64,000 nucleotides of DNA from a virus (IMGVR_UViG_3300014969_000016:32001-96000); one strand, 5' to 3'. Positions 1,960-52,417 are shown, counted from the stretch's first letter. A program made the numbers and translations. Notes: a model not told the origin generated them from the letters alone.

Positions 1960-3303
1960 CTAGTTGGTGATGATCTTGACGACCGACGAGTCGGTGATGA
2001 CTCCCCAGCCCCAGATGCTGTACCAGGCCAGAGCGTGCTCACGACCGAAGTCGAGCACGCCGCCGTCACGGAGTTCGACCGGCAGCGAGATGGCGTGGCC
2101 GAAGGCGTTGTCGCCCAGCATGATCGCCTCGTAGATGCCGTTCGACGGACCCCACGGCTCGCCCCAGCCAGGCAGCGCCGTCTCACCTGTGGGCAAGTCG
2201 TCCAGCGCAGCCGGGTCAGCGATATCGGGGTAGGGCGACGGGTCGGCAGCACCTTGAATGTCGCCACCGGTCACGCCGAGGGCGTTGCCACGCCAGTCCG
2301 GGTTGAACGGGTTGACCGAGGTGAGGTTCCCACCAGGGAGTTGTGGCCACAGGTCGGTGGCATCCACCGTGCCAGCGAGCGGGCTGGACACCTGCGTCGT
2401 CTCGATGAAGACCACGTCGTCCAGTCGGCCGACCTCTCCGAGCATGAAGTTGCCCGGTGCGGCATACTTGGTTACCTCGATCCATTCCGGAGTATCGCGC
2501 AGGCGACGACTCTGGTGTGGATGGATGAAACACACGTATGTTTCACCGAGGCGGGGGACGTTCTTGGTGGCCAGCACCTCGACGGCGTCCTTCACCGAGT
2601 ACGGCGTGAGCCAGAAGTTGTCGTCCAGCGCCGGGGTGCCCGCAGAGGTCGTGACCTGGGCGAGGCCGGTGGCGGGGGTGCCGCCCTCGTACACGCCGTA
2701 GCCGACGTTGATGGCGGTCGGCTTGGCGTAGCCGAAGACCACCGACGTGGAGCGGGAGAGCGTCTGGCGAGCCTGGGAGTCCATGTACAGCGCCATGTTC
2801 CGGCCGAGCAGCCGGGACGACGACGCCATGATGTCATCGAAGCTGGCATTCAGCAGGAGTTCGGATACGGCGACGGCGAAGCCTTGCTCCTGCACCGTGA
2901 TCGCGTACTGGTTCGCCGTGATCGCGTGGGTCTTCATCCGCACGCCTTCGATCAGCGGACCCGAGGGCATCGGGAGATTGTTGTATCGCATGAAGTTCAC
3001 GGTCAATCCCGGCATCGTGCCGAGTTCCGTCTTCTTTACTGCGAATTGTTCGAACCGGAGTACCGGCATCGACTGGAACAGGATCTCCTTCGACCAGATC
3101 GTCTGGATCGCTGGACCCAGCATTGTCGATCCGGTCGCCACTGATCCCGAGTAGCCGACCGCCGTGTTGTCGAGGGTTGCCGTTCCACGATAGCCAACCG
3201 GCATGTCGTAGTTGGAGTATGGGCCTCCGGTCGCGAGCCTCGTTGTACCGGCGATACCGGATACGACAGGAAGTTCGCCACCGAGGCTGCCACCTGCTGG
3301 CAT
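1960..3303 (-). CDS. Major capsid protein, N4-gp56 family (HK97 fold)
   Basis: 447 aa. Motifs IQTIWSKEILF, LRFEQFAVKKTELG.MPG.TVNF.RY, YVCFIHPHQ..LRD, GEVGRL..V.FIET, DFGREH.LAWY. Follows scaffold and portal. Confidence 0.92.
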   Translation of the reverse strand: MPAGGSLGGELPVVSGIAGTTRLATGGPYSNYDMPVGYRGTATLDNTAVGYSGSVATGSTMLGPAIQTIWSKEILFQSMPVLRFEQFAVKKTELGTMPGLTVNFMRYNNLPMPSGPLIEGVRMKTHAITANQYAITVQEQGFAVAVSELLLNASFDDIMASSSRLLGRNMALYMDSQARQTLSRSTSVVFGYAKPTAINVGYGVYEGGTPATGLAQVTTSAGTPALDDNFWLTPYSVKDAVEVLATKNVPRLGETYVCFIHPHQSRRLRDTPEWIEVTKYAAPGNFMLGEVGRLDDVVFIETTQVSSPLAGTVDATDLWPQLPGGNLTSVNPFNPDWRGNALGVTGGDIQGAADPSPYPDIADPAALDDLPTGETALPGWGEPWGPSNGIYEAIMLGDNAFGHAISLPVELRDGGVLDFGREHALAWYSIWGWGVITDSSVVKIITN

Positions 3304-3371: not shown

Positions 3372-4193
3372 TCAGCCCAGTCGGCGTGACTGGCTGGTCG
3401 CCTGAAGGAGTTGATTCCTGTACTTCTTGTACGTTTCCATGTCCATGCCACGAATGTCTTCGGGCGTCAACGATTCATACGACGGCAATTGCTCCATTGG
3501 ACCAACAGGTGGGGCCGTGGGTGCGGCCCCTCTCGGTGCGAACGGAACCTGCGGTGGTTCCACGGCTGCGAAGTTGGCGAGGACAGAAGCTGTGCGCTCC
3601 TTCATCACCTCGATTGAGTGGTCGATCTCCTCGGGGGTGGCCCCTTGGATGAAGTCACGAAGTTCAGGAAGGATGTCGTTCGCTTCCTGAGCGATCCGGT
3701 CACGACGGTACAACTCGGCCTCTTGTAGCTGGCGCTCCTTCGCGAACACCTCACGGTCGGCGTTGTACCGCCCCTCCAGAGTGGCCAGTTGGCTGTTCCA
3801 CTCCTGCTCCCGCTTCTCCAGAAGCTCCCGAACGCCAAGTTCGGTTTCCTCCTGGGCCTTCTGCGCGTTGGCTGCCTCCTGGGCAAGCCGTTCACGTTCG
3901 GCCTTCTCGGCCTCACGCTCTTGGCGCAACTGCTTGAGTTGCTCCGACATTTCCTCCAACCGGGGATAGAGCTTGTCCTTCTCCTGCTTGCGGGCGTTCT
4001 CCACGTCTTCGTCGGTCCACCGGTAGGCGGGCCGCTCTTCGGGAGGCGGCTGTTGGCGGGAGGGTGTGGGCTGGCTCACGGCCTGATCAGGCCGGGTCTG
4101 CTGGTAATCGACGGCGTAGCGCGGCTGAGCCGGATCGACGCCGACGAGTAGTCCCTGACCCGTCTCTGAGATGTTCCCCTGCGTGTTCGACAT
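3372..4193 (-). CDS. Capsid scaffolding protein
   Basis: 273 aa E/Q/R-rich coiled coil between portal and capsid; C-terminal IRGMDMETYKKYRNQLL. Confidence 0.8.
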   Translation of the reverse strand: MSNTQGNISETGQGLLVGVDPAQPRYAVDYQQTRPDQAVSQPTPSRQQPPPEERPAYRWTDEDVENARKQEKDKLYPRLEEMSEQLKQLRQEREAEKAERERLAQEAANAQKAQEETELGVRELLEKREQEWNSQLATLEGRYNADREVFAKERQLQEAELYRRDRIAQEANDILPELRDFIQGATPEEIDHSIEVMKERTASVLANFAAVEPPQVPFAPRGAAPTAPPVGPMEQLPSYESLTPEDIRGMDMETYKKYRNQLLQATSQSRRLG

Positions 4194-4290: not shown

Positions 4291-5949
4291 TCACGTCTGG
4301 TCATCCGACTCAAAGTCGGCTAGCTGTGGCGGCATGCCGCCGTACGCCAGGAACTGAAGCTCCTGGGCGATCTCGGGGTTGATCGGTGGCTGGGCGATCT
4401 GTGGGTTGCCCTCGGCATCGGCCCCCATCATCGGTGTGCCATCGGGCATCATGCCGGTAGCAGCCATGTTGAAGGCGGCGATCTGGTTCTGGACGAGGGT
4501 GAGGGCGCCCGCCTCCTTGGCATCCTCCATGACCTCTTCGAAGATCTCCCTGATCTTCTGGTCGGGGAACTGTGTGCCCAGGTCACGCAGGGCGCCACGC
4601 CTGGATTCAAGCTGCATCGCCATCAGCGCCTGGATCTCGTTGATCTTGAGCAGCCGGTCGATGGGCATCGGGCTGGGCCAGTCCACGTACGTGCGGTAGC
4701 TGACCGCCAACGTCGGGTCCAGTTGCTGCATCTGGTCGGCCTTGAGGTACGTGGAGGACCGCACCGGGTCGTACATCGTCAACTCGGGGGCGAAGACGAA
4801 GGCGTGGCGGATGATCAACTCGTTGACCCGTTCGAACAGCCGGGTGTAGTTGACCTTCTTGCGGTCGTGCTTCAGCATCAGCGGCTGGTACTGGATCGAC
4901 AACGCCACGCCCGACGTGTTGGAGATCGGCTGCATCGTGCCGAGAGCAGTCGCTGGTACCCCGGTTAGCTCATGCATCGCCTGCTTCAGCAACTCCATGT
5001 AGCCCAGTGGCCCAGTGAAGTTGGTCTGTAGCTCCAACTGCTGGATCTTGGCGTCCTTGTTGGTGACGGCCCACACCTTGCGCGGACCCTTCTCCAGGTT
5101 CGACGCCTTGGCTCCTGTTATGACAGTGACCGGGCTGGCGTGGTAGTTGATGATGTCCGAGATCTCCGTGGCCTTCTCGTTGTACTCACGGTTCAGCGGG
5201 ATGATGTCGATGATGTCTGCCAGACCCCATGGGCTGGAGGCCACTGTGATATTGGGGCAGAAGGCGACTGCTATCTCACCAATCGGGTTGGGCCGAGAGT
5301 CGATCATCTCGTCGTTGATGTACTCTTCGATCATGTCCTCCGTCATCAACTCGACGTAGGTCATGACCTGGCGTGTTCCGTCGCTGGCGGTCCCGAAGAA
5401 CTTGTACTTGGTCTTGAACCGGATCATGCGGGAGCGGTCGTGCGGATGCCACTCCGGGAAGCAGAAGGCCGGGTTGATAGGAAGGATCCTGATGCGGCCC
5501 TCTTGCGGGACACCGGCCGGGTCAACGTATGGTGGCTCGTATGCCACCTTCACGAAGCAGTCGCCGCTCACCGAGCCAAGCTGCGCTAGCTCCATCAACA
5601 CCTGTTGCTTGTTGTTATGAACTTCCCACACTTCCTTGAGCGTGTAGGGCGTGATCGCAGCGGTCGCTTCCGGGCTGTAGAAGTTGACGCCCTTGGTGAA
5701 GGAGAAGTTGACCAGGTAGTCGGAGAAGGCCTTGACCCAGTTGAAGGTGAGTTGTGGCTCCCCGATCTCGCGCTTGTACGCCCAGTGGTGCCCGAGGTAC
5801 CACGCCCAGTTCGACGCGTAGCGGTTCATACGTGGGCCGTGGACTTCGAACTCCTCGTCGGCAAGCTCCACAAGCCCCAGCGGTGATATCGCAACGGTGA
5901 GGTCAGATGCCGCCGCCCGATAGCTGGGTGCGTTGAAGGCGACGGTCAT
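4291..5949 (-). CDS. Portal protein (SPP1 gp6-like)
   Basis: 552 aa. Motifs WAWYLGHHW, GSVSGDCFVKV, WGLADIIDIIPLNREYN, SNTSGVAL. Expected position. Confidence 0.9.
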   Translation of the reverse strand: MTVAFNAPSYRAAASDLTVAISPLGLVELADEEFEVHGPRMNRYASNWAWYLGHHWAYKREIGEPQLTFNWVKAFSDYLVNFSFTKGVNFYSPEATAAITPYTLKEVWEVHNNKQQVLMELAQLGSVSGDCFVKVAYEPPYVDPAGVPQEGRIRILPINPAFCFPEWHPHDRSRMIRFKTKYKFFGTASDGTRQVMTYVELMTEDMIEEYINDEMIDSRPNPIGEIAVAFCPNITVASSPWGLADIIDIIPLNREYNEKATEISDIINYHASPVTVITGAKASNLEKGPRKVWAVTNKDAKIQQLELQTNFTGPLGYMELLKQAMHELTGVPATALGTMQPISNTSGVALSIQYQPLMLKHDRKKVNYTRLFERVNELIIRHAFVFAPELTMYDPVRSSTYLKADQMQQLDPTLAVSYRTYVDWPSPMPIDRLLKINEIQALMAMQLESRRGALRDLGTQFPDQKIREIFEEVMEDAKEAGALTLVQNQIAAFNMAATGMMPDGTPMMGADAEGNPQIAQPPINPEIAQELQFLAYGGMPPQLADFESDDQT

Positions 5950-6122
5950 ACACGCCTACCGTACTGGCTATCCCAGTGGGGTTGCTGTTGCTGCTGCTGA
6001 GTCATGTAGGCGTCGTTCTCGTCGCGCTCTTGGCGGCTGGTCGTCACCTTGCCGCCCTGGTGCCGGTGCCCGTAGTCAGCAGGGTTGAACAGTTGCGGGT
6101 GAAGGTGGTCGGTTGCTGCCAT
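5946..6122 (-). CDS. 58-aa protein starting MAATDHLHPQLF (candidate tagged virion cargo)
   Basis: Not in the ORF track. Start and stop overlap both neighbours. First 7 residues are identical to those of 6122..6502. Confidence 0.75.
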   Translation of the reverse strand: MAATDHLHPQLFNPADYGHRHQGGKVTTSRQERDENDAYMTQQQQQQPHWDSQYGRRV

Positions 6123-6502
6123 CAGGGGAACGACGGAAATCTGTTGGTGGTCACGGGCTGCTGAGGTTCCGGGGTGCTGCGCTTGGTGTAGTCCCGGTAC
6201 TGCACCGGGACATAGCTGCGGGGATTGGCGGTGTATGCCGCCATGATGCGATGGTGCCCGGAGACGATCTTCTGCTCGCCGCCTTCGTGGATCCCGAGCG
6301 TCACCGGGTACTCGACACCACGCTTGGCCACGTCGGCAGCCAGACCGTCAGCGGCGTTGTCCTTGCGCTTGGAAGTCCACATCTGGTCGTGTGACTTCCA
6401 CCCGGCCGGGTGGCTGGGATCAACATCGGCCGATCTGTAGTCCTGCAGTAGCTCCCGTGCTGTCATGAACAGCTTGCCCTGGAGGTGATCGGTGGCAGCC
6501 AT
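6122..6502 (-). CDS. ParB/Srx-like N-terminal domain protein
   Basis: LAADVAKRGVEYPVTL...IVSGHHRIMAA; paralogue at 51944..52417. Confidence 0.75.
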   Translation of the reverse strand: MAATDHLQGKLFMTARELLQDYRSADVDPSHPAGWKSHDQMWTSKRKDNAADGLAADVAKRGVEYPVTLGIHEGGEQKIVSGHHRIMAAYTANPRSYVPVQYRDYTKRSTPEPQQPVTTNRFPSFP

Positions 6503-7344
6503 CAGAACAGGGTTCCCTGGTTCGGATCGTGCCTGGACTCCTGGTGGCCAGCGTGGAACTCTTCGGTGCGATCACGTGGGTGCAGTTCGGACAGCAGCGG
6601 TTCGTGGGCACTCTCGGTGATGGCCCCCCACTTCTCCAGGCCCGCCGCCGCACCGATCCGGTTCACATCCTTCTCACCGAAGTCGATGGCCTCGCCCAGG
6701 CTCATGCTCGACCTCAGCAAGTCCCACTTGGGGGTGTAGCCGATGTGCCTGCCGGTCTGCTGGTTCTCAATGGCGTGGACGTTGTCGAACATCGTCTGCT
6801 GAACGTGGGGCAGGATGGCCTGCTCGTCATCCAGCCGTCGAAACTCCGGGGTGCCGTGGACAGCATGGTGGACCAGATCGACGTAGTTGTTGTTGCCACG
6901 TGATTCGATGGTCGGCTCCCGGCCGGTGGGTTCATACTCATGTACGCCAGCCGGGGCGACGGCATGGTCACGCACCGTGGCTCCAGGCCGCAGACGCACC
7001 TCGGCCTCCATGTCCAGCCCCCACTGTGACTTGCCTGTCTTGAACTTGCCCTCTGAGTCCGTGTAATGCGAGCGGATGTTGCCGCCCTTCCACTCGCCCT
7101 CGGTGATGACCTGATCGCGAGACACGGTGGCCCGGTGGACGAAGCGGTCGTCGCCAGATCCACCAAGGCCGGTGTAGTGCGAGACGTTCTCGTCGGTTGA
7201 CCAGTGGATACCGAGCGAACCGCCAGGGTCACCCTTCTGCATGCGGTAGACCGTCATGCTCTCGGGCGGATTCTTGGCCATCTCCTTGAACTGCTCCTTG
7301 CGGAGGTTGCTGGCCCGGTACTCCTCGTCGGACATGCGCTCCAT
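6502..7344 (-). CDS. Putative ADP-ribosyltransferase-fold protein
   Basis: TVYR / GIHWSTD / EAEVRL match the order of the R-S-ExE ART signature; ends QGTLF. Confidence 0.5.
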   Translation of the reverse strand: MERMSDEEYRASNLRKEQFKEMAKNPPESMTVYRMQKGDPGGSLGIHWSTDENVSHYTGLGGSGDDRFVHRATVSRDQVITEGEWKGGNIRSHYTDSEGKFKTGKSQWGLDMEAEVRLRPGATVRDHAVAPAGVHEYEPTGREPTIESRGNNNYVDLVHHAVHGTPEFRRLDDEQAILPHVQQTMFDNVHAIENQQTGRHIGYTPKWDLLRSSMSLGEAIDFGEKDVNRIGAAAGLEKWGAITESAHEPLLSELHPRDRTEEFHAGHQESRHDPNQGTLF

Positions 7345-7562
7345 CAGAACGTCGGCTTTGAGTAGGGCGACTTCATACGCATGTAGCTGCGGTACTGGTT
7401 CTTCTGCGGATTGCGCTGGTAGAACGCCGGGAACTGCTTGCTGGACATGGGCGGGAACGGATCGTTGACCGGGCGTGTGTCATGTTTCGCAGCGGCCAGC
7501 GTGACGTGATGACGCGACGCCTGGCGGCGGGGGCGACTCTCCCCCCGATACTCACTAGCCAC
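7344..7562 (-). CDS. Small basic hypothetical protein
   Basis: GTG start at 7562 overlapping the upstream stop (MASEYRGESRPRRQ...MSSKQF...). Confidence 0.55.
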   Translation of the reverse strand: MASEYRGESRPRRQASRHHVTLAAAKHDTRPVNDPFPPMSSKQFPAFYQRNPQKNQYRSYMRMKSPYSKPTF

Positions 7563-7845
7563 GGAACCCCGGAGCGCCCTTGACGTGATAGCCCCGGCCG
7601 CTCTCGTTCTTCTCCAGCGCCGGTCCCTTGCCGAAGTCACCTCCACCACCAGGGCGGTACGAACCAACCACCCGTCCTGTTGACCACTTGCCGGAACTTT
7701 CCGTGGTGACGCCAGTACCAGGCTCATCGAACAACATGTCTTGGGAGATAAGGCCAGATAGCTGCGTGCTCTTGCCCACCTTCCGCTTGGGGTGGTTGGC
7801 CTTGTCCGGGGCCAACCTGCCATCGTCTCGGTGTCCACTAGCCAT
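7555..7845 (-). CDS. Small Gly-rich protein with NHPKRKV and QDMLF motifs
   Basis: 96 aa, GGAGG RBS. Confidence 0.75.
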   Translation of the reverse strand: MASGHRDDGRLAPDKANHPKRKVGKSTQLSGLISQDMLFDEPGTGVTTESSGKWSTGRVVGSYRPGGGGDFGKGPALEKNESGRGYHVKGAPGFRG

Positions 7846-7860
7846 TGTGATACCTCCGTA

Positions 7861-8151
7861 TCAGCCCTTCCAGGTTCCGCTGCGGCGCTCGTTCTCGCTG
7901 GCGGGTCCGTGGTGCGTGTAGCCCTGGCTGAGGTAGTCGCCGCCCTCGTTGTAGCGACTGACGTACTGGCGCCGGGTAGCGACGCCGCCCACGTCCACGA
8001 CGGAGTTGTCGAACACCTCGCGATGCACCTTGCGGTCAGGGTTGTCAGCCTGGTTCGCCGCCAGCCGCCGACCGGACGACGACATCTTGTACTGGTGGGC
8101 CGGTGTTGACCGTTCCTTCTTGATGGCAGCGACCTGCTCAGCGCGCTTCAC
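7861..8151 (-). CDS. Small protein with DNPDRKVHREVF motif
   Basis: 96 aa, GTGA coupling. Confidence 0.7.
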   Translation of the reverse strand: MKRAEQVAAIKKERSTPAHQYKMSSSGRRLAANQADNPDRKVHREVFDNSVVDVGGVATRRQYVSRYNEGGDYLSQGYTHHGPASENERRSGTWKG

Positions 8152-8303
8152 TTCTTCTTCGCTTCCTTCTTCAGGACGCCGCTGGCCTTCTTGATGGCCT
8201 TGCCCTCGGAGTCACCGGACTTCTCGGCCGACTCACGCACGTGCTCCCACTGACGGGACTTCTTGGCGGTGTTGGCCTTCTTGGTGTGTTCGGATGCGGG
8301 CAT
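8148..8303 (-). CDS. Small basic ChaB-like protein
   Basis: MPASEHTKKANTAKKSRQWEHVRESAEKSGDSEGKAIKKASGVLKK; start moved to the ATG at 8303. Confidence 0.6.
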   Translation of the reverse strand: MPASEHTKKANTAKKSRQWEHVRESAEKSGDSEGKAIKKASGVLKKEAKKK

Positions 8304-8404
8304 CAGATCCTCCCTCGCAGTAGCAAGATGACGAGCAGGATGATCAGGATCAGCAGGATGACGCCCCCGCCGATGTAGAGGCCACCAGCAAGTAGGGGAA
8401 ACAT
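8303..8404 (-). CDS. 33-aa single-TM microprotein
   Basis: MFPLLAGGLYIGGGVILLILIILLVILLLRGRI; TGATG coupling on both sides; not in the ORF track. Confidence 0.7.
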   Translation of the reverse strand: MFPLLAGGLYIGGGVILLILIILLVILLLRGRI

Positions 8405-8622
8405 CAGCCACCTCTCCTTCGGTCACGTTCACGGTCGTAGGCATCGGGGTCTTCGTTCATGGCGATGCCTTCGAAGTTGGGCTTGACCTTGTTCCACTTC
8501 GGGTCGGGTGGCCCGTACTCCGGGTAGCTGGCCATCGAACGGGAGAGGGCGTCGAACTCCGGCCCCCGAAAGCGTTCACGGTGAACCTGACGGTTGGGGT
8601 CGTTCTCTCTACGGTCAGCCAT
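8404..8622 (-). CDS. Small protein with NDPNRQVHRERF motif
   Basis: 72 aa, GAGG RBS. Confidence 0.7.
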   Translation of the reverse strand: MADRRENDPNRQVHRERFRGPEFDALSRSMASYPEYGPPDPKWNKVKPNFEGIAMNEDPDAYDRERDRRRGG

Positions 8623-8632
8623 CGATACCTCT

Positions 8633-8950
8633 CTATGCCACGGTGCTCTGGTGGCGGTTCATGATCTGGCCCACCGGCCCGTAGCTGTTGGTGTAGCGGG
8701 GCTGGTTGTCCTGCGTGAACGCCACCACCGGGTCCGTCATGCGCTGAGGCATCTGGATCGACAGGTTGCCATGCATGCGGGCGGTGGCGTCCTGGGCGCT
8801 CATCCCGGCGTCGCGCATGCGCTCCCAGTTGCCCTGGATGACCGGCCCTGCGTCACGGCTGCTGATACCACCGTCAGTGCTGGGATGGACGATGCCGATG
8901 GAACTGGGCCGACGTGCAGGACTCATGGCGGTGTTGATACCTCTGGCCAT
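8633..8950 (-). CDS. Hypothetical protein
   Basis: 105 aa, translationally coupled. Confidence 0.65.
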   Translation of the reverse strand: MARGINTAMSPARRPSSIGIVHPSTDGGISSRDAGPVIQGNWERMRDAGMSAQDATARMHGNLSIQMPQRMTDPVVAFTQDNQPRYTNSYGPVGQIMNRHQSTVA

Positions 8951-9108
8951 CAGCGGGTGCTTTCTCTCCCACCCTTGGAGCGCTTGGCCTCACGGGTCTT
9001 GGCCGTGTCCTTCACACTCTTCGGAGCAGCATGGCGGGGTGCTTCCTTCTTGCCCTTGCCGAAGCTTCCCTTGTCCTTGCTGTCGGTGTGCTGGGCCTTC
9101 TCGGTCAT
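8950..9108 (-). CDS. 52-aa Lys-rich protein (possible DNA binder)
   Basis: MTEKAQHTDSKDKGSFGKGKKEAP...; ATGA coupling. Confidence 0.6.
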   Translation of the reverse strand: MTEKAQHTDSKDKGSFGKGKKEAPRHAAPKSVKDTAKTREAKRSKGGRESTR

Positions 9109-9296
9109 GTCCAGTCCCCCTTGGTCTGTCGGTTGGCCACGTTCCACTGTGAACGCTGCAGGTTGCCGTTGGCAACGACGGGCCTCTTGTCCGTGACGAT
9201 GCCCGATTGGTTGGTAGCCCGAGATGTCGGGTTGAGAGGTGTCTTCTTGGCCACCCTCTTGGACAAGGGTGCCTGGCGCTGTGGTCCGACAGGCAT
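9105..9296 (-). CDS. 63-aa basic protein with NLQRSQW motif
   Basis: MPVGPQRQAPLSKRV...; coupled to both neighbours. Confidence 0.6.
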   Translation of the reverse strand: MPVGPQRQAPLSKRVAKKTPLNPTSRATNQSGIVTDKRPVVANGNLQRSQWNVANRQTKGDWT

Positions 9297-11419
9297 CACC
9301 GAGCGAACCTTGGGTTCTGTGCGTAGATCGCATCGTTGCGCTTGCTGCGCTGGCGCAACTCCACCGAGGCGGCAGCGCGAGAGGGACGGCGCTTCGTATC
9401 GGGTCGCTCCGTGGCATCCCACGATGCGATGTTGGGGGCCGGTGCTCCACCCCTCGCCGCCGAGATGTGGGCAGCCGCCTCGGATTGCTCCGTGGCCACC
9501 CGTGATGCCGACTGGGCCATGCGCCCACGCAGTTCGATGGAGGCAGCATGCTCGTTGGCATGATCGGCGGGCGTCTTGGTTGGGAACAGCGGGCCTTGGC
9601 CAGCCTTCGGGTCGGCCTTGGCCGGTAGCGCCCGCCAGTTGCTGGCGTAGCGGGTGGCCTCCCCGGTATCGACATCGAACAGCGGAACGTTCTCGCCTGG
9701 CTTGGGCGTCTGGCCAGCAGGAGCATTGGGCCGACCGGCAGCTTGAGCAGCGATGTGCGCCTCGCGCTTCTTCAGGTCGGGATCCTTGTCCATGTCCATG
9801 CGGTAGGAAGTCCATGACCCGCCCTGGACGGCAACGGCCGGAACACCAGCGCCAACGTTGCGCCCAGCGGCCCGTGCCCGGTCGGTGACGATGCCTGCAG
9901 CCCGGTTGTTGACCTCGTTGGACATGGCATGCAACGCCTCTTCCTTGGTGAGCTTGCGCTCACCCTTGGGAGTAGGCATGTACTTGTCACCACTACCGAT
10001 GTTCATGACGTGCTCGTCAGAGCCGAGCAGCTTGGCCACCAAACTTGGTGAGCGAGCACTCTGGCCGACTTCCTTGCCCTCCACATCACGGGGCAAGGCC
10101 AATGACTGGGCCATCGCCCAGGTGTCCTGGGCCGTCGTGCCCTCATGGAGCTTCATCCCCGCATCGATCCTGGCGTTATCCCGTGCCGACTGCTCCGGGA
10201 AGAACTGCTCAGCGGCCACGGACGGACGATGCGGCACGTCGGGCTGGTGACCGGTGTTCAAGATGCCCTGGGTGACGTGCGCCTTGCCGTAGGGATCGGC
10301 TTCGTACTCGGGGCCGAAGATCGTGGGCTGTTCGAAGTACGGGTGATTCTCGGGTATCGATTCGTGGACCCTGCGATTGAACTCGGACACGTCGTTGGCG
10401 TCGGGGGCATCCTCACCCATCGATGCCAGGCCAGCGCCGAGCAGGCTCTGGTGGGTGTAGGTGGGCACCTTGCCGGTTGGCCCTTGATCGGCCTGGGTCT
10501 TCTGGCCCCGGATCATCTCGGTGCCGGTGGCGACCTCGGTGCCGCCCTTGGCGATGCCTCCGAGATCGACGTTGCCCGTCAGGTGGTCCCGGTGACGGGC
10601 GAGCATCGCCACCTGCTTCGGAGTGAAGTCACTGAAGTTGCGATTCTGGCCGGGAGCCATGTCGAGGTCTTCCATCGCCTGACCATGGGACTTGCGAACA
10701 TCAGGATCGGCGTTCTTGGGCAGCTTGGCCATCGTCAAGGACCGATCACCACGCCCGTGCTGGCCGTAGGAGATGGCCGTTGCCGCCGCTCGTTCCGACA
10801 CCGGGTCGTTCTGCGGACTCATCGACGTGGAGCCGACAACGGTCTGGCGTGTATCGGCGCCCGTTACTTCGGCCACCTTGGCCAGTTCGCCGCCATGACT
10901 CTGGTACCAGTCACCACCCGCAGGGATCACCGTGCCCCTGCCCTCCTTGACGTGGGCGACCGAGGCCAGGGCCGATGCGGACAGCGACGACGGGCCGAGA
11001 TCAGCATCGGTCACGCCGATGTTCCCGGACAGGGTGCGCTGCCCAGCCCGTGCGTAGTTGTCAGCCACACGCGCCGCAGCAACGTCCATCGTCACCGGGG
11101 TGGGGCTGTTGGTGAGGAGCGACGCTGCCGTGGTCATCTGCGCCGCACGGCGCTTCTCCTTGCCGATGTTGTCTACGTCGCCGCCCTTGGCCCCCGCAAC
11201 ACGCGCTGTTGCGTTGGCGGCGGCATTCGCCGCCATCGTGTGGGGGTTGGAGGCGATGTTCGTGAAGGCTGCCTCAGCCCGCGCCTTGCCCTCGGGAGAG
11301 AAGTCGGCCATCGTCGGCGGGCGACCGGTCGTCTCTCGGGGATGCAGCGGCGGTTGACCGTTGGCTTCGTCTCGACTCGTTCGGCCCATCAGCCCTTCCT
11401 TCCCCGTGGATCCCGCCAC
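9296..11419 (-). CDS. Large virion-associated protein with a dispersed HhH-glycosylase-like (WY..SPQ..KV..DxW..VQ..W) motif pattern
   Basis: 707 aa. DWYQSH, SMSPQN, GKVPTY, AQDTWA, AVQGGSW occur in the order seen in a widespread phage family. Disordered ends. Confidence 0.5.
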   Translation of the reverse strand: MAGSTGKEGLMGRTSRDEANGQPPLHPRETTGRPPTMADFSPEGKARAEAAFTNIASNPHTMAANAAANATARVAGAKGGDVDNIGKEKRRAAQMTTAASLLTNSPTPVTMDVAAARVADNYARAGQRTLSGNIGVTDADLGPSSLSASALASVAHVKEGRGTVIPAGGDWYQSHGGELAKVAEVTGADTRQTVVGSTSMSPQNDPVSERAAATAISYGQHGRGDRSLTMAKLPKNADPDVRKSHGQAMEDLDMAPGQNRNFSDFTPKQVAMLARHRDHLTGNVDLGGIAKGGTEVATGTEMIRGQKTQADQGPTGKVPTYTHQSLLGAGLASMGEDAPDANDVSEFNRRVHESIPENHPYFEQPTIFGPEYEADPYGKAHVTQGILNTGHQPDVPHRPSVAAEQFFPEQSARDNARIDAGMKLHEGTTAQDTWAMAQSLALPRDVEGKEVGQSARSPSLVAKLLGSDEHVMNIGSGDKYMPTPKGERKLTKEEALHAMSNEVNNRAAGIVTDRARAAGRNVGAGVPAVAVQGGSWTSYRMDMDKDPDLKKREAHIAAQAAGRPNAPAGQTPKPGENVPLFDVDTGEATRYASNWRALPAKADPKAGQGPLFPTKTPADHANEHAASIELRGRMAQSASRVATEQSEAAAHISAARGGAPAPNIASWDATERPDTKRRPSRAAASVELRQRSKRNDAIYAQNPRFAR

Positions 11420-11703
11420 CCCTTGGAGATGGCCTTGGCCCGCCTGGCCTCCAACACGTCGGGCCGGAACGGCTGGAGTGCTGGCGGCATCGCGAACTTG
11501 TTGAGATACTTGCGGTGTACCTCTTTCAACACGTTCGGATCGGCGTTGATCATCTCGTAGCCGCTGTTGACCTCGGCAGACGGCTTGACCAGGTACTTCT
11601 GGATGTTGGAGACAGGGCGTCCCGCCGTGGCAGGGCCAAGTGCTCCAGAAGCTGCTCTAGCGCCTTTCGACCCGGCCGCGCCCACTGAGATGGGCTTGGC
11701 CAT
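11389..11703 (-). CDS. Small basic hypothetical protein
   Basis: 104 aa, in operon. Confidence 0.65.
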   Translation of the reverse strand: MAKPISVGAAGSKGARAASGALGPATAGRPVSNIQKYLVKPSAEVNSGYEMINADPNVLKEVHRKYLNKFAMPPALQPFRPDVLEARRAKAISKGWRDPRGRKG

Positions 11704-11709
11704 GGTGGG

Positions 11710-12072
11710 TCAGTCGCTGACTTGGGCGGGGTTGAGGCGACGGATGCGTGCCTCGCTCCCCACTTCGCGTTCGAAGCTGGCCGGTCCCTGACCGATGGAA
11801 GCGCCGATCACGAAGTCGTTCAGCATGGTGGGGGCTTCGATCCAGGTGGCGCTGCCGACATGGGCACGCTCACGCATCGTCTCGGCCTCGCCCTTCCAGA
11901 CGGTGTACGGACGCTGACGAGCGTCGCCACCGGGATCGCCGTAGGCGCCCTGGCCGAAGTCGTTGGGAACGTCGGTGTCCGTGGCAACGCCCTCTTCGAA
12001 GCGGAGTGGACCACGTCGAGCGTTGTTCACTGCCATGACGTGCTCATAGCCGCTCGCAGGTGCGTAGCTCAT
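11710..12072 (-). CDS. Conserved head-module protein downstream of terminase
   Basis: RRGPLRFEEGVATDTDVPNDF...TMRERAHVGSATWIEAP; GGAGG RBS before ATG 12072. Confidence 0.75.
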   Translation of the reverse strand: MSYAPASGYEHVMAVNNARRGPLRFEEGVATDTDVPNDFGQGAYGDPGGDARQRPYTVWKGEAETMRERAHVGSATWIEAPTMLNDFVIGASIGQGPASFEREVGSEARIRRLNPAQVSD

Positions 12073-12199: not shown

Positions 12200-13822
12200 T
12201 CATCCCCGGCGAGTGAAGAACGGCGAGTCCATCTGCTCTACGACGGGGACGGCATCGTCCATCGTGCAGGCCGCAGCCAGGGCCAGGCTGTCCACGTAGT
12301 CCTCATGAGCCTCACGCTCGTCGGGGGCTTCTACCAGGAGGTATTGGCCCTTCATCACCTTCTCCACGTCCACCATCTGCTGACGGAAGCGTCGCCACAC
12401 CCTGGTGCGCCGTGCCTTGGAGTGGCCGGGGTAGATCAGCATCTGGCGTTGTATCAACTGGATGAGGTGCTTCCAGCGGTCGGCCTGGTTCTTGGCATCG
12501 GACGGGTACGGCCGAACTTCGGCCCGCGATCCGATCAGTCGGGCCATGCGGTCGGCAACGGCGCTGCCCATGCCCTGGGCATCGACGCCAACGTGGGAGA
12601 TCCAGTACGGCTCAAGGAAGTCGAGAATTTCGAAGTACTGCTCCTCCCAGGCTGTGTTGTGGATCTCCAGCCAGTTGAGGATGCGGTGCTCCCGGTACCC
12701 GGCCGGGTCGGGGAAGTCCCAGTCCACCCAACACACGGTGACGACGGTGGAGTCCTTCACACGGGCCGGGTCGATGCCCACCACGCAGGGAGAACGGTGC
12801 CATGCCTTGACTAAGCCCATCGACTTGTCAGCAAGGGCGTCCAGGTCGTCCTCGGTGATGAGCATGCCTCGCTCAAGCATCCACTTGAGCCGGTATGACA
12901 TCTGGAACTCTTCGGAGTCCTCCCCGAGACGGAGCTTCTCCTTGTCGATGAACTTCTTGTAGAACGGGTTGTACCGGGAGACGACTCGGTCGTCGTACTC
13001 AAAGTGGTTGGCCCGCTTACCCCGCTGACGGCGCTTGTTGAGGTTGATGGCCTTGTAGAAGTCACCCTTGTGATACCCAGGGGTGCCGATCTTGACCATC
13101 GTGCCGCCCGTGGCCGCGAGCATGGGGTGGATCGACTTGCGGATGACCTGCTCGTCGGCGTCCTGGCACTCGTCCACCACGATGATGTGATACGTGGAGC
13201 CTTCGATCTTGGCCCGAGGGTTGGCGGTCTGGCGTCTGCAGTAGGAGCCGTTGGAGAGTCGCACGACCTTGGACTTGCCATCGACCTTCTCATCGATCTC
13301 CGGGTCGGACAGGATCGATACCGCCCTATCGGAGGTCAGTCTCGACACGATGCGTGAGAACACCAGGTCAGACTGGTCATCGACCGGTGCGAACAGCCCG
13401 ATCCACACGCCGTCCTTGAACCGCTCCAGCAGCGGGTAGGTCTTGGCCAGGATGGGCAGCAGGATCATGCAACCCGACAGGGTGACGGCCACGACCTCGC
13501 TCTTGCCTGACTGGCGGGCCATCAGCCCGGTGATCTCTTCGGCATCCCCCAGAATCAGACTTTCGATCACCCGGTAAGACATCGTGCGCTGGTACGGCCG
13601 CAGTTCGTGGCCCCACAGTTCCTCGCAGAAGATGATGGTGCGCCGGATCAACTGATCCAGGAAGTTGGCCATCTCCGGGTCGAGGTCATCGATGGTGTCC
13701 GAGTCCTGATCTTCCAGGAGGGTGGCTTCCTCAGCCGCCTCTTCGGCAGCGAGTTCGGCCTCTTCCTCATCGGTGAGGTCGTAGCCCAGGTCCGTGATCA
13801 GATCAGAGATACCTACGACCAT
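12200..13822 (-). CDS. terL: Terminase large subunit
   Basis: Walker A ARQSGKS, Walker B IIVVDECQ, coupling motif IGTP, nuclease VGIDPA and HEDYVDSLAL. Start moved downstream of the 13833 terminator (exact start uncertain). Confidence 0.95.
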   Translation of the reverse strand: MVVGISDLITDLGYDLTDEEEAELAAEEAAEEATLLEDQDSDTIDDLDPEMANFLDQLIRRTIIFCEELWGHELRPYQRTMSYRVIESLILGDAEEITGLMARQSGKSEVVAVTLSGCMILLPILAKTYPLLERFKDGVWIGLFAPVDDQSDLVFSRIVSRLTSDRAVSILSDPEIDEKVDGKSKVVRLSNGSYCRRQTANPRAKIEGSTYHIIVVDECQDADEQVIRKSIHPMLAATGGTMVKIGTPGYHKGDFYKAINLNKRRQRGKRANHFEYDDRVVSRYNPFYKKFIDKEKLRLGEDSEEFQMSYRLKWMLERGMLITEDDLDALADKSMGLVKAWHRSPCVVGIDPARVKDSTVVTVCWVDWDFPDPAGYREHRILNWLEIHNTAWEEQYFEILDFLEPYWISHVGVDAQGMGSAVADRMARLIGSRAEVRPYPSDAKNQADRWKHLIQLIQRQMLIYPGHSKARRTRVWRRFRQQMVDVEKVMKGQYLLVEAPDEREAHEDYVDSLALAAACTMDDAVPVVEQMDSPFFTRRG

Positions 13823-21827: not shown

Positions 21828-21973
21828 GTCGGTTCTTCGGGTATGACGGTGCGATGCATGCGCTCTGGATCTTCCTGTTGCTGTTGGCGTTGGTGGTGCT
21901 CGCCGTGGGATCGGCGCTGACCGGTAGGTGGCTGATCCAGCATGCCGTCGAACCGTACAAGGATCCGAACGCG

Positions 21974-22120
21974 CTAGTCGTCGCTGTAGTCCTCCGGGTC
22001 TGACTTGCCGCCCTGCTCCAGCCACGACCCGATGCCAAAGGCAAGTATCAGAAGTATCAGCATGAGGCCCGCCGTGGCTAGGAAGTCCACCCACGGGTTC
22101 ATCACGATGAAGTCTGGCAT
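21974..22120 (-). CDS. Single-TM microprotein
   Basis: Hydrophobic stretch, GGAGG RBS. Confidence 0.55.
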   Translation of the reverse strand: MPDFIVMNPWVDFLATAGLMLILLILAFGIGSWLEQGGKSDPEDYSDD

Positions 22121-22247
22121 CACCCCTCCCCCTATCGGTTGCTCTTCCAGACCGACCAGACGCACACCCCCAGCAGGATGACGGCCAGCACATTGAAGGC
22201 GGCGGCAAGGAGGGTCTTGGAGTTGTCGCTCACCCGCCGAGTATCTC

Positions 22248-22754
22248 TCACCGGGTGATGGCGCGCATCGCCCTTCCGGCCGTGACCGCCTGCTGCACGG
22301 TCTGCGTGCTGACGATGGAGTCGGCCCACACCAGATGGCACAGCCCCTTGCGGTCAGTGCCGATGAAGAACCGGCGCCCCGAGTTGAGCCAGGAGCGGGA
22401 GGTCTTGACCAGGCGGATCTGGTAATGCTTGATGGCGCCCCAGCGTGTGCGCACGTAGGCGATGTGGCCGGGGATCAGCTTGTCCTCGGCCGGGTCGGCC
22501 ACCTTGGGCCACTGCTCGCGCTGGGCACGGGCCTCCACGATGACGGCCTTGGCCCTGGCCCGCTCGGTAGTTGGGCGGGGCGCCGGTCGCTGACGAGATT
22601 GTTGCGGTCGCGTCTTGGGGATCAGCTTGGTCCGGGGCATCTCTTCGGTCAGCAGCCCGTGGATCATCGTCTCGTCCTCTTCCGTCAGTACGAAAGGACG
22701 AGCGACCACCCGCTCGTAGTAGCTGTTCCCCACCAGGGGGTCGCCAGGGATCAC
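22248..22754 (-). CDS. Hypothetical protein
   Basis: GTGA-coupled start at 22754. Confidence 0.6.
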   Translation of the reverse strand: MIPGDPLVGNSYYERVVARPFVLTEEDETMIHGLLTEEMPRTKLIPKTRPQQSRQRPAPRPTTERARAKAVIVEARAQREQWPKVADPAEDKLIPGHIAYVRTRWGAIKHYQIRLVKTSRSWLNSGRRFFIGTDRKGLCHLVWADSIVSTQTVQQAVTAGRAMRAITR

Positions 22755-32207: not shown

Positions 32208-32465
32208 TCAGGGCGTGCGGATCTCGCCCGTCTCATCGTGTTCCAACCAGTATCCACAGGCGTCTGTTCCAAGGGTCCAGCCGCTGTCGCTGACCAGCAC
32301 TGCATCCGGGCAGCCCTTGATCGTGGTGCCGTGGAGTGTTCCAAGGAAGACCATCCCATCGATGCCGTGGTCAGCAGTCTGCTTGGCAGCGGCCACCGTC
32401 ATCTCTTCTTCCTTGATCACGTAGTCGAACAGGTCGCACTGCTGTTCCAAGCTAGGTGGTGTCAT
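32208..32465 (-). CDS. Hypothetical protein
   Basis: 85 aa from MTPPSLEQQ. Confidence 0.6.
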   Translation of the reverse strand: MTPPSLEQQCDLFDYVIKEEEMTVAAAKQTADHGIDGMVFLGTLHGTTIKGCPDAVLVSDSGWTLGTDACGYWLEHDETGEIRTP

Positions 32466-42717: not shown

Positions 42718-43008
42718 CTAGTACAGCGTTCCCTGGCGGGGGTCAGGTGTGGGCGTTGTCGGCCGTGGCCGTGGTCCTGGACCCTTGCGCGACTGGTCAG
42801 TCCAGTTGTGCTCCGTCCCCTTCGGGCCGAACTGGTTCCAGTTGACGTGATCCATCTCATGTGGCTCACTGACGCCCAGCGTCAACTGCCTGCTCCCATA
42901 CACGGGTAACGCCCCTGGCGGGTGGGTCATCACCGTGTTCGGTAGACGCTCCGAGGCGTGCTTGGCCCGCATCCTGTCCAGTCGCTTACCCATAGCTGAG
43001 TCCTTCAA
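42718..43008 (-). CDS. Small protein with HVNWNQF and terminal QGTLY
   Basis: 96 aa (start may be 42993). Confidence 0.6.
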   Translation of the reverse strand: MKDSAMGKRLDRMRAKHASERLPNTVMTHPPGALPVYGSRQLTLGVSEPHEMDHVNWNQFGPKGTEHNWTDQSRKGPGPRPRPTTPTPDPRQGTLY

Positions 43009-51343: not shown

Positions 51344-51944
51344 GCTTGCGGTGTTCCAGCGCCTTGTTGATGTCGTAGCCGCCCTGCTTGCGGCGGATCT
51401 CCACCTGGACGTAGCTCTGGAAGTAAGGGCACATGTGGCAGAGGTAGACCCGCAGGTTGTTGGGCACAACGTGGACCCGGCCGTCGATCTTGTAGCTGGC
51501 CGCACCGATGCGCTTCTCGTCGGTCATGAAGTCCCGGCAGCCCGAGGACAGGTCGGGGTTGCCGTGGGCGTTGTAACACTTCGCCGCCCCCTCGCGGAAC
51601 TCGTCGCTCTCTTCGAACTGGCGCTGGGTCTGCTCGTTCAACTCGGCCTTGATCTTGGTGACCACGTCCATGGTGTCCCAGGTCTTCTGGTCCACCTGCC
51701 AGACGTTGATCACCTGGCCGTTGACGAAGAGTTGCTCCTGCAGGTGGTGCTGGTGCTGCTCAACGAAGTGTTCCAAGACCGGGTCGTAGGCCGGAACCAT
51801 GATCGGGTTGCCGTGCTCGTCCTTGTAGACGTACTCCTCACCCGACTCCCACTCCAGGCGGGCGACGGTCATCGGGGTCTTGGCGGGCGGGTCGGGGATG
51901 CGTTGGATGATTGCGCAGGGAGCGCAGGCGACGATGCGTGGCAT
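51321..51944 (-). CDS. Cys-rich conserved protein
   Basis: CAPC...KCYNAH...C...YLCHMCPY. Confidence 0.75.
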   Translation of the reverse strand: MPRIVACAPCAIIQRIPDPPAKTPMTVARLEWESGEEYVYKDEHGNPIMVPAYDPVLEHFVEQHQHHLQEQLFVNGQVINVWQVDQKTWDTMDVVTKIKAELNEQTQRQFEESDEFREGAAKCYNAHGNPDLSSGCRDFMTDEKRIGAASYKIDGRVHVVPNNLRVYLCHMCPYFQSYVQVEIRRKQGGYDINKALEHRKRGRRVRN

Positions 51945-52417
51945 TACTCGTTGTCCAGGATGTAGAGGCCCGCATCATCCACGGTGTTGTGATGTATCAC
52001 CGGGATATAGCGGTTTGGATCTGTGTCCAAGCTAATGGCTACCCGGTGATGACCTTCAGCGATCTGGCCCTTCCTGGTCCCGCTGGAGTCAGGCCTGCCG
52101 AACTGATGCGAGAGGTGGACCGGCTGCTGCACGCCCTCGGCGGCGACGGAGCGGTACAACTTGCCGCCGCCCTCCTTCTTGGACTCGGTCAGCTTGCGGT
52201 CCATCACATCGGCGTGACTCTCCAGGCCGGTGGCGACGCCGCCTCGGGCTGGACGCTTGGGCATGCGATCCCACTCCGACGCCTGGTGAGACTGCATGAT
52301 CTCGTTGCCCGTCATGAACATCGGCAACTGCTGCCACTGCTCGCCCAGGTGCGGAGCGTTCAGTTCTGCTTCGGCACGACTCGGCTTCTTGAAGTTCTCG
52401 GGTTGGGATAGGCCCAT
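51944..52417 (-). CDS. ParB/Srx-like domain protein (paralogue of 6122..6502)
   Basis: QLPMFMT...LYRSVAAEGVQQPVHL...IAEGHHRVA...YIPV. Confidence 0.75.
   Translation of the reverse strand: MGLSQPENFKKPSRAEAELNAPHLGEQWQQLPMFMTGNEIMQSHQASEWDRMPKRPARGGVATGLESHADVMDRKLTESKKEGGGKLYRSVAAEGVQQPVHLSHQFGRPDSSGTRKGQIAEGHHRVAISLDTDPNRYIPVIHHNTVDDAGLYILDNE

Follow-up and report, generated by a model that had tools for sequence, protein, structure and literature searches.

Short terminal peptides on diverse late proteins of an uncultured soil phage: probable modular docking tags, with the host sliding clamp as a candidate hub

Why should late phage proteins of unrelated build, encoded side by side between terL and the portal gene, carry the same few residues at their ends? 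The question is raised by a 64,000-nucleotide stretch of DNA (IMGVR_UViG_3300014969_000016:32001-96000; the window, with positions counted from its first letter), which is part of one 115.7-kb virus record of an uncultured soil phage (63% G+C, rated 98% complete). The portal, scaffold and capsid proteins of this phage share 27-62% identity with their counterparts in the Streptomyces myophages BRock and GiJojo. All genes belonging to the finding lie on the minus strand, and most of them form a cassette delimited by a plot of third-position G+C by frame (GC3 frame plot), gene calls and junction overlaps:

5946-11703, minus strand: hypervariable late-gene cassette

A first-pass annotation of the window had proposed that motifs of three kinds, MAATDHL..LF starts (motif 1), [N/H][L/V]xxxQ[F/W] (motif 2) and P-x-R-[K/Q]-V (motif 3), are tags that dock diverse effectors onto scaffold or capsid for co-injection. 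Our analysis distinguishes tag A, with the core N-H-P-x-R-[KQ]-V, from a class B/C, defined as Q-x-x-[LM]-F, Q-[LM]-x-[LF]-x-[LF] or QF-x-G-hydrophobic at either terminus and including the MAATDHL..LF and MPAHE..QF starts. The cassette tags are very probably modular docking peptides. They can be read as docking motifs because of their terminal position, their disorder, selection at the level of the peptide, the many bodies that carry them and their swapping between those bodies.

Within the window alone the sharing of motifs is barely above chance. Every motif string quoted in the first-pass annotation is present where it was placed, on the minus strand, and tag-sharing pairs reach p ~5e-3 among 190 pairs by pairwise local alignment, which is not significant alone; the one strong pair is 6122-6502 with 51944-52417, two paralogs. 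A portal search of IMG/VR yielded 79 related loci with portal identity of 60-90% (L-numbered labels such as L003 and L020 denote loci in this comparison). From these loci and the genome itself, 250 non-redundant cassette proteins (34,000 residues) were compared with 858 other proteins (195,000 residues). Across the 79 loci the sharing is very strong for two of the three proposed classes: the motif-enrichment check that the first-pass annotation had suggested, run here as cassette versus other proteins plus shuffles, found both motif 3 and the Q..LF/QF class enriched. An unbiased comparison of N-termini, with one representative per body cluster, gave 128 similar pairs in the cassette compared with 1-9 in shuffles and 3-9 among non-cassette representatives; for C-termini the corresponding numbers were 29, 5-10 and 6-11.

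The strict core of tag A, [HD]P.R[KQ]V, occurs 19 times in the 250 cassette proteins, not once in the 858 others and 0.14 times in shuffled cassette proteins, in full agreement with the proposal of motif 3. It lies at residues 8-18 in 17 of the 19 copies and at the C-terminus in two. With their ends removed, the carriers fall into ~25 body clusters without detectable similarity, and a profile search of a large protein collection returned 25 further metagenome proteins with a tag A start, adding new bodies. Three leader subtypes are seen on many small cassette proteins of the relatives: M-[AS]-[RK]-G-E-[DN]-T-x-x-H-P-x-R-[KQ]-V; M-T-x-x-N-G-G-Q-R-D-E-x-H-P-N-R-Q-V; and M-A-S-G-H-G-V-x-K-P-D-K-A-N-H-P-x-R-[KQ]-V. 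Each of the four bases is found at the third position of the invariant Pro, Arg and Val codons (entropy 1.7-1.9 bits at position 3, 0-0.3 bits at positions 1-2). Because the third codon positions are saturated, tag A is conserved as a peptide and not as DNA, which rules out conservation at the DNA level, whether as a translation-initiation region or as a recombination linker. The tag A copies of the window are as follows:

8569..8622, minus strand: tag A at the N-terminus of a 72-residue protein (gene 8404-8622), MADRRENDPNRQVHRERF
8011..8085, minus strand: tag A of gene 7861-8151, ADNPDRKVHREVF
7777..7845, minus strand: tag A of gene 7555-7845, MASGH...PDKANHPKRKV subtype
8909..8950, minus strand: degenerate tag A on gene 8633-8950, MARGINTAMSPARR, recognised in the body-family alignment

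The real start of gene 7861-8151 is probably an internal ATG at 8085, since its ortholog L020:8346-8606 starts at the equivalent Met; tag A would therefore be N-terminal there too. The proteins of 7555-7845 and 7861-8151 are distant paralogs, and the body tail of the former recurs in L007:3071-3283, which bears another tag A subtype. The most direct case of tag exchange is the body family of 8633-8950, which has the degenerate tag A in the window, a clear tag A, MPRGVNTAFHPARV, in L075, and MPAHENLHSGQF in L003, the last being a start of the MPAHE..QF type on a body that is tagged with tag A elsewhere. The earlier description of the carriers as unrelated bodies thus holds for the ~25 body clusters of tag A, but not for the paralogous pairs 7555-7845/7861-8151 and 6122-6502/51944-52417. 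Two further strings of that annotation, HVNWNQF (42718..43008) and the partial NDPNRQP (41214), lie outside the coverage of the relatives.

Class B/C is likewise concentrated in the cassette. C-terminal B motifs are present in 18 of 250 cassette proteins and 3 of 858 others (p = 1e-9), and an N-terminal hydrophobic-x3-[QL]-F pattern in 13 of 250 and 7 of 858; four of the seven outside matches are MPAHE proteins just beyond the set cassette boundary. The largest carrier shows the C-terminal form:

9296..11419, minus strand: DUF7178-like protein, largest of the cassette, with a helical core resembling HhH-GPD glycosylases

Here QGPLF (9584-9598) is followed by a 97-residue extension. In alignment, members of the DUF7178-like family have a conserved core that is followed by a basic linker, variable in length, and by a terminal Q-x-x-[LF]-(G)-[FL]. 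A DUF7178 profile search returned 236 representative clusters; 53 of 130 full-length representatives end exactly in LF or MF, compared with 1 of 583 controls, and 39 of the 53 have Gln at position -5. The tail persists in relatives of 47-63% G+C. An AlphaFold model of a DUF7178 protein has a predicted local distance difference test score (pLDDT) of 84.6 in its core and below 50 over its last 53 residues (432-484). Compared with VIA, the core (residues ~95-430) has HhH-GPD glycosylases as 12 of its top 20 matches, at Z 4.7-7.9, a range that is middling for helical proteins; the top two matches are to the queuine-salvage enzyme DUF2419, which we take to be glycosylase-like. Foldseek found no match in the PDB at E <= 0.001, matches in BFVD include pieces of giant polyvalent proteins (ART-PolyVal, N-acetyltransferase), and our literature search found no paper mentioning DUF7178.

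A second C-terminal carrier, a 280-residue protein, shows how different forms of the motif can stand in for one another:

6505..6528, minus strand: tag B tail DPNQGTLF at the extreme C-terminus of the ADP-ribosyltransferase (ART)-fold protein (gene 6502-7344)

Its model (pLDDT 82.5 overall) matches ADP-ribosyltransferase toxins almost exclusively (TreX Z 6.3, the DNA-targeting Scabin 5.1, LT 4.9, pertussis toxin 4.7), with nothing significant in a Foldseek search of the PDB. Alignment of 20 homologs reveals an invariant R34, W48 followed by S/T-T, and E113-x-E115, so that a predicted R-S-E-type ADP-ribosyltransferase fold is accompanied by the Arg, S/T-T and E-x-E pattern. The tail (residues 261-280) is modelled as disordered, with pLDDT ~40. 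At the one C-terminal position D-P-N-Q-G-T-L-F, N-Q-M-Q-F-E-G-F, Q-L-Q-F-E-L, Q-L-Q-L-D-L-G-G and E-R-L-F alternate within the family; because they do so, the LF and QF forms can be regarded as positional equivalents.

At the N-terminus class B/C is found on a ParB-like protein and on its small neighbour:

6467..6502, minus strand: tag B/C, N-terminus of the ParB-like 126-residue protein (gene 6122-6502), MAATDHLQGKLF
6087..6122, minus strand: tag B/C, N-terminus of a 58-residue protein (gene 5946-6122), MAATDHLHPQLF
51944..52417, minus strand: ParB-like paralog of 6122-6502 (31% identity over 108 residues, E 2e-10), with QQLPMF directly before the common domain

The 6122-6502 protein has a weak ParB-like PHROG match, and in its orthologs MAA[TS]DH[LV] and then Q-L-R-M-F, Q-L-S-M-F or Q-G-K-L-F immediately precede the folded domain. 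Motif 1 is thus present and kept in orthologs; the supposed echo of it in 51944-52417 reflects homology rather than the tagging of an unrelated body, because that gene encodes a full-length paralog. Over their first seven codons the two MAATDHL starts of the window show four differences, all of them synonymous, a first hint, at the level of codons, of selection on the peptide. Beyond its tag, the 58-residue protein corresponds to the C-terminal extension module (residues 257-307) of a relative's 309-residue protein, L003:747-1676. We also observed a C-terminal ending, [WY]-x-x-[QE]-Y-G-[RK]-[RK], on different families (L003:747-1676, L012:609-1478, L020:7957-8346 and 5946-6000 in the window), and it may represent a third end module. 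The labels of ART-like, ParB-like and glycosylase-like previously given to the carriers all hold at the level of fold or of a weak profile match.

The proposed motif 2 proved heterogeneous. Of its members, PMSSKQF alone fits the QF class, and NLRKEQF and NLQRSQW are not tags:

7419..7451, minus strand: QF-type PMSSKQFPAFY in the small protein 7344-7562
7285..7305, minus strand: LRKEQFK in gene 6502-7344, part of NLRKEQF, not a tag; helix 6-24, pLDDT above 90
9105..9296, minus strand: 63-residue protein with NLQRSQW, a family-specific segment and not a shared tag; homologs in ten related loci
42721..42750, minus strand: C-terminal tail TPDPRQGTLY of gene 42718-43008, outside the cassette

The 7344-7562 family, with homologs in 13 related loci, conserves P[IML]S[SN].[QE]FP.LY (for example, P-I-S-S-K-Q-F-P-A-L-Y), a pattern similar to the ART family's QFPG[LM] tails. 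The QF of NLRKEQF gives way to GL, EL, AL or VL in orthologs of the ART-fold protein, and members of the 9105..9296 family have N[LF].R..W without conservation of the Q.

Starts of the MPAHE..QF type, which fit the QF pattern too, were identified on two genes of the neck locus in this genome and on three proteins of relatives. The former are adjacent genes at genome positions 21905-22599 (L082:906-1600, minus strand), beyond the window, and each begins with MPAHE-x5-QF. The related genes of L013 and L022, for which weak GNAT matches were obtained, lie between terL and the gene for a 120-residue protein upstream of the cassette, and for this reason the tagged pair can be said to move between structural loci. 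As a separate observation, the gene 32208-32450 (minus strand), in an early-type region, starts with M-E-Q-Q-C-D-L-F (32409-32450), a clamp-motif-like N-terminus outside the late operons.

What might these peptides dock on? The data show the motifs, their enrichment, selection on the peptide, swapping and the carrier folds; binding, the identity of any hub and packaging of the carriers are inferred. The cassette would represent a polymorphic accessory set, comprising the DUF7178 glycosylase-like, ART-fold and ParB-like proteins together with many small basic or disordered proteins, in which tags on disordered ends, conserved as peptides, would be shuffled between bodies by recombination; most likely, each motif class would dock its carriers on one common hub. 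The consensus for binding to the bacterial beta clamp is Q-L-x-L-F, in which position 1 is Gln and positions 4 and 5 are hydrophobic; it usually occupies an unstructured C-terminus, and the motif has arisen independently in many proteins of mobile elements (PMC4549789). Peptides that fit Q-x-x-[LM]-F or Q-[LM]-x-[LF]-x-[LF] are seen in the tails of the DUF7178, ART and other cassette proteins and at the N-termini of the ParB-like proteins, and in the DUF7178 and ART models they lie in unstructured ends with pLDDT below 50. Hexapeptides of the form Q-L-x-L-x-L are also known from clamp clients. The class B/C tails, borne by proteins with folds of DNA enzymes, match the beta-clamp-binding motif in its pentapeptide as well as its hexapeptide form, which makes DnaN their more likely hub. 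It would be the DnaN of the host because the phage is without a clamp gene: a DnaN domain search detected none in the genome, and a phage-encoded clamp as the hub was accordingly not supported. Binding of class B/C to host DnaN could tether DNA-acting enzymes and small competitor peptides to DNA. Judged by the motifs, we regard host DnaN as a serious candidate for the hub of class B/C, if one somewhat short of probable. Class A (M-A-R-G-E-D-T-G-N-H-P-G-R-Q-V type) appears to be a new tag: it matches no known motif and, by sequence comparison, is confined to a high-G+C subclade. A component of the head is the leading candidate for its receptor, an assignment that we make tentatively.

Several points weigh against the clamp as hub. 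The genome has no clamp of its own. All tagged genes lie in late structural operons, which is odd for clients of the clamp at the time of replication and is expected for packaged proteins. Position 2 of the motif is G (Q-G-x-L-F) and not the textbook L, the MPAHE..QF starts are without Gln at position 1, and the fold matches of the carriers, at Z 5-8, are in the range called middling for helical proteins. The clamp-like look of a hydrophobic docking peptide could be coincidental, and the finding of two tags on one body fits a common destination more simply than two hubs. The breadth of the Q..LF tail across relatives fits a universal host hub, and fits equally well a head module common to all these phages. 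Packaging and clamp addressing are also compatible, in that proteins could be packaged and then sent to the host clamp after injection.

The strongest alternative is that all tag classes are capsid-loading signals, docking on scaffold, portal or capsid during procapsid assembly for co-injection with the DNA, as a protease-independent analogue of the T4 capsid targeting sequence (CTS). In the T-even internal-protein locus, diverse bodies share only a ~10-residue CTS (PMC3012670, PMC8442874; Repoila et al. 1994 cited there), and the tags here are likewise short, terminal and interchangeable on one body, as with the N-terminal CTS of T4 internal proteins. The location of the tagged genes in late structural operons, translationally coupled to terL and portal, the movement of the MPAHE-tagged GNAT between neck locus and head cassette in relatives, the many small and basic carriers, again as in T4, and the Ig-like TIG and Big_2 proteins in the same cassette in relatives are all consistent with loading; solo ParB-like, GNAT and ART domains beside virion genes have been predicted to be packaged (PMC5512222). 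However, no contact with capsid, scaffold or portal is linked to the tags, no match to a T4- or HK97-type prohead protease (Peptidase_S77 and S78 searched) or to MuF (Phage_Mu_F) was found in the genome, BRock-type relatives with homologous portal, scaffold and capsid have no tags, and one early-region gene also begins with a Q-C-D-L-F peptide. The Q..LF/QF class matches another well-defined motif, that of the beta clamp. We consider capsid loading by every tag class doubtful, and a shade more so a version in which two interchangeable peptides (N-H-P-x-R-[KQ]-V and MPAHE/MAAT..[QL]F) would direct protease-independent head loading of diversifying, co-injected cargo, made up of small proteins and DNA-acting enzymes. 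In that version the peptides would be an independently evolved, second counterpart of the T4 CTS, and could serve for packaging foreign proteins into actinophage-type capsids. Of the first-pass interpretation, short modular peptides on diverse late proteins, selection at the peptide level and exchange between bodies all stand; the resemblance of the Q..LF/QF class to the beta-clamp-binding motif, and the DNA-enzyme folds of the proteins that bear it, tell against its purely capsid-directed part. As a related candidate, we considered whether Q-G-x-L-F tails mimic the scaffold N-terminus (D-T-G-x-G-F/L) and set this aside, as the hydrophobic register differs and the Gln is not conserved in scaffolds.

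It is improbable, in our view, that there is no common receptor at all, and that the tags are remnants of tandem duplication in fast-diverging families combined with recombination at module junctions, with conservation that is local to each family. There are indeed true paralogs among the carriers (the two pairs given above), the 58-residue gene has the look of a tag fused to a tail module that belongs to a different family, and Q..LF marks module junctions beyond which extensions have been added in 9296-11419 and L003:747-1676. Against this, saturated third positions beside invariant residues indicate long-term selection on the peptide, the same peptide is carried by ~25 bodies without detectable similarity, tag A is absent from the 195,000 residues outside the cassette, and the Q..LF tail is kept across 236 representative clusters. 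Equally improbable is that the tags are processing or turnover signals (cleaved leaders, junction cleavage sites, or degrons for a host AAA+ protease that time activity). In favour of this, N-terminal tags adjoin the start of folded domains, tags lie at junctions before optional extensions, and the T4 CTS is itself cleaved off (PMC8442874). Against it, no protease gene of the two families searched was recognised in the genome, proteins ending exactly at LF would be already cut yet retain the motif, and two tag A copies are C-terminal.

If the tags are modular docking peptides, with host DnaN as candidate hub for class B/C, how do they compare with known systems? Encapsulins use short terminal peptides to load cargo into an HK97-fold shell; a short terminal peptide, a flexible linker and unrelated putative cargo proteins are found here too, without likeness in sequence, and the shell is a tailed-phage capsid with portal and scaffold. 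As with the T4 CTS, an N-terminal peptide of roughly 10-20 residues can be the sole common feature of diverse, fast-changing small proteins, often basic, and of enzymes encoded in a hyperplastic locus. Unlike the CTS, the peptides described here are unrelated to it in sequence, form at least two classes, are in part C-terminal and are encoded inside the head operon; here too there is no match to the two prohead protease families, and packaging is hypothetical. Clamp clients (polymerases, Hda, transposases) share with class B/C a terminal motif, a disordered linker, a DNA-acting, mobile-element character and a motif position that shifts in homologs. They differ in that here Gly is frequent at position 2, the carriers are in late operons, the phage has no clamp gene, MPAHE..QF is off consensus and binding is a prediction. 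Polyvalent proteins and solo domains (PMC5512222), including Dar and DdrB of P1, likewise place ART, ParB-like, GNAT and large helical domains beside virion genes, whereas here they are separate small proteins with short peptides, not fused to MuF, portal or each other.

T4 stocks its head with anti-defence proteins by means of short address peptides, and the sliding clamp recruits its clients through such peptides as well. In the present case they are maintained throughout an entire phage lineage, on late proteins that number in the dozens, evolve fast and are unrelated to one another, and they are exchanged from one body to another. Should tag A be a head-loading signal, it would constitute a second natural protein-packaging system and may be of use as a tool for placing cargo in phage capsids. 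Should DnaN be the partner of the Q..LF/QF peptides, the phage would be directing to the host replisome a glycosylase-like protein, an ADP-ribosyltransferase, a ParB-like nuclease and several mini-proteins, implying a new kind of host take-over or DNA-modification arsenal.

The lineage is known from soil and other metagenomes only. Megablast of the cassette against phage records gave no match, and tblastn against cultured phages with the ParB-like, DUF7178-like and 104-residue proteins and a distant DUF7178 representative found no homologs. Direct IMG/VR searches with the 707- and 280-residue proteins returned no relatives. Ten window proteins had no Pfam hits and, in PHROGs, the one weak ParB-like match only. 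The interval from the 120-residue homolog to the portal varies from 0.8 to 5.8 kb and is mosaic across the 79 loci, each window cassette gene having homologs in a different subset of phages; in BRock and GiJojo the interval between terminase and portal holds unrelated genes. In relatives, proteins with Ig-like (TIG, Big_2) domains are encoded immediately upstream of the portal (L005:6163-6498, L071:9654-9989, L016:3567-3902, L008:9435-9986), and in L005 and L071 the small gene before the Ig-like gene has a C-terminal tag A and overlaps the Ig-like gene by 4 nucleotides. In low-GC relatives (47-49% G+C) the same interval contains a 381-residue gene of calcineurin-like phosphoesterase type (L090:12055-13200; G-D-N...G-N-H-E, by eye), and these relatives also have a 216-residue protein ending in E-Q-L-G-L-P-K-D (L090:13493-14143), a look-alike of the hexapeptide clamp motif.

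The cassette is set among the head genes in the following order:

12200-13822, minus strand: terL, most upstream of the late genes listed
11710-12072, minus strand: 120-residue protein, conserved also in BRock, between terL and the cassette
5946..12072, minus strand: terL-portal stretch of ~15 translationally coupled genes (GC3 frame plot and gene calls)
4291-5949, minus strand: portal, directly downstream of the cassette
3372-4193, minus strand: scaffold, downstream of the portal
1960-3303, minus strand: capsid protein, downstream of the scaffold

The tight coupling of the genes between terL and portal, noticed at first pass, is borne out: cassette junctions are overlaps of 1, 4 or 8 nucleotides (-1, -4, -8) or gaps of 6-15 nucleotides, and no promoter- or terminator-like site above chance was found on the minus strand inside the cassette. 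Given these junctions and the absence of such internal sites, the cassette is most simply regarded as part of the late head operon.

Some features of the head proteins themselves deserve mention. The portal C-terminus (4291-4440) keeps A-Q-E-[LV]-Q-F-L-A-Y-G...P-P-Q-x-x-D-F, and the scaffold N-terminus (4100-4193) D-T-G-x-G-[FL]-x-x-G-V-x-P-A-Q-P-R, across the 60-90% relatives; these conserved terminal peptides might be candidate docking sites. The capsid protein (1960-3303, minus strand) has a ~75-residue insertion (around residues 305-381) relative to the 340-residue capsid protein of GiJojo. Inside the cassette, untagged, conserved and very lysine-rich mini-proteins of 42-60 residues are encoded at 8148-8303 and 8950-9108 (minus strand), and in a relative at L003:4195-4371; one such family (MPGGK.PGPSIKKP.EYEALK...) presumably resembles a SAP/Rho-N-type DNA-binding motif, and these mini-proteins could be DNA-associated head proteins. 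The GC3 frame plot also supports a 33-codon gene at 8303-8404 (minus strand), inside the cassette, whose tiny product is hydrophobic and of membrane type and has a close counterpart at L030:7470-7562.

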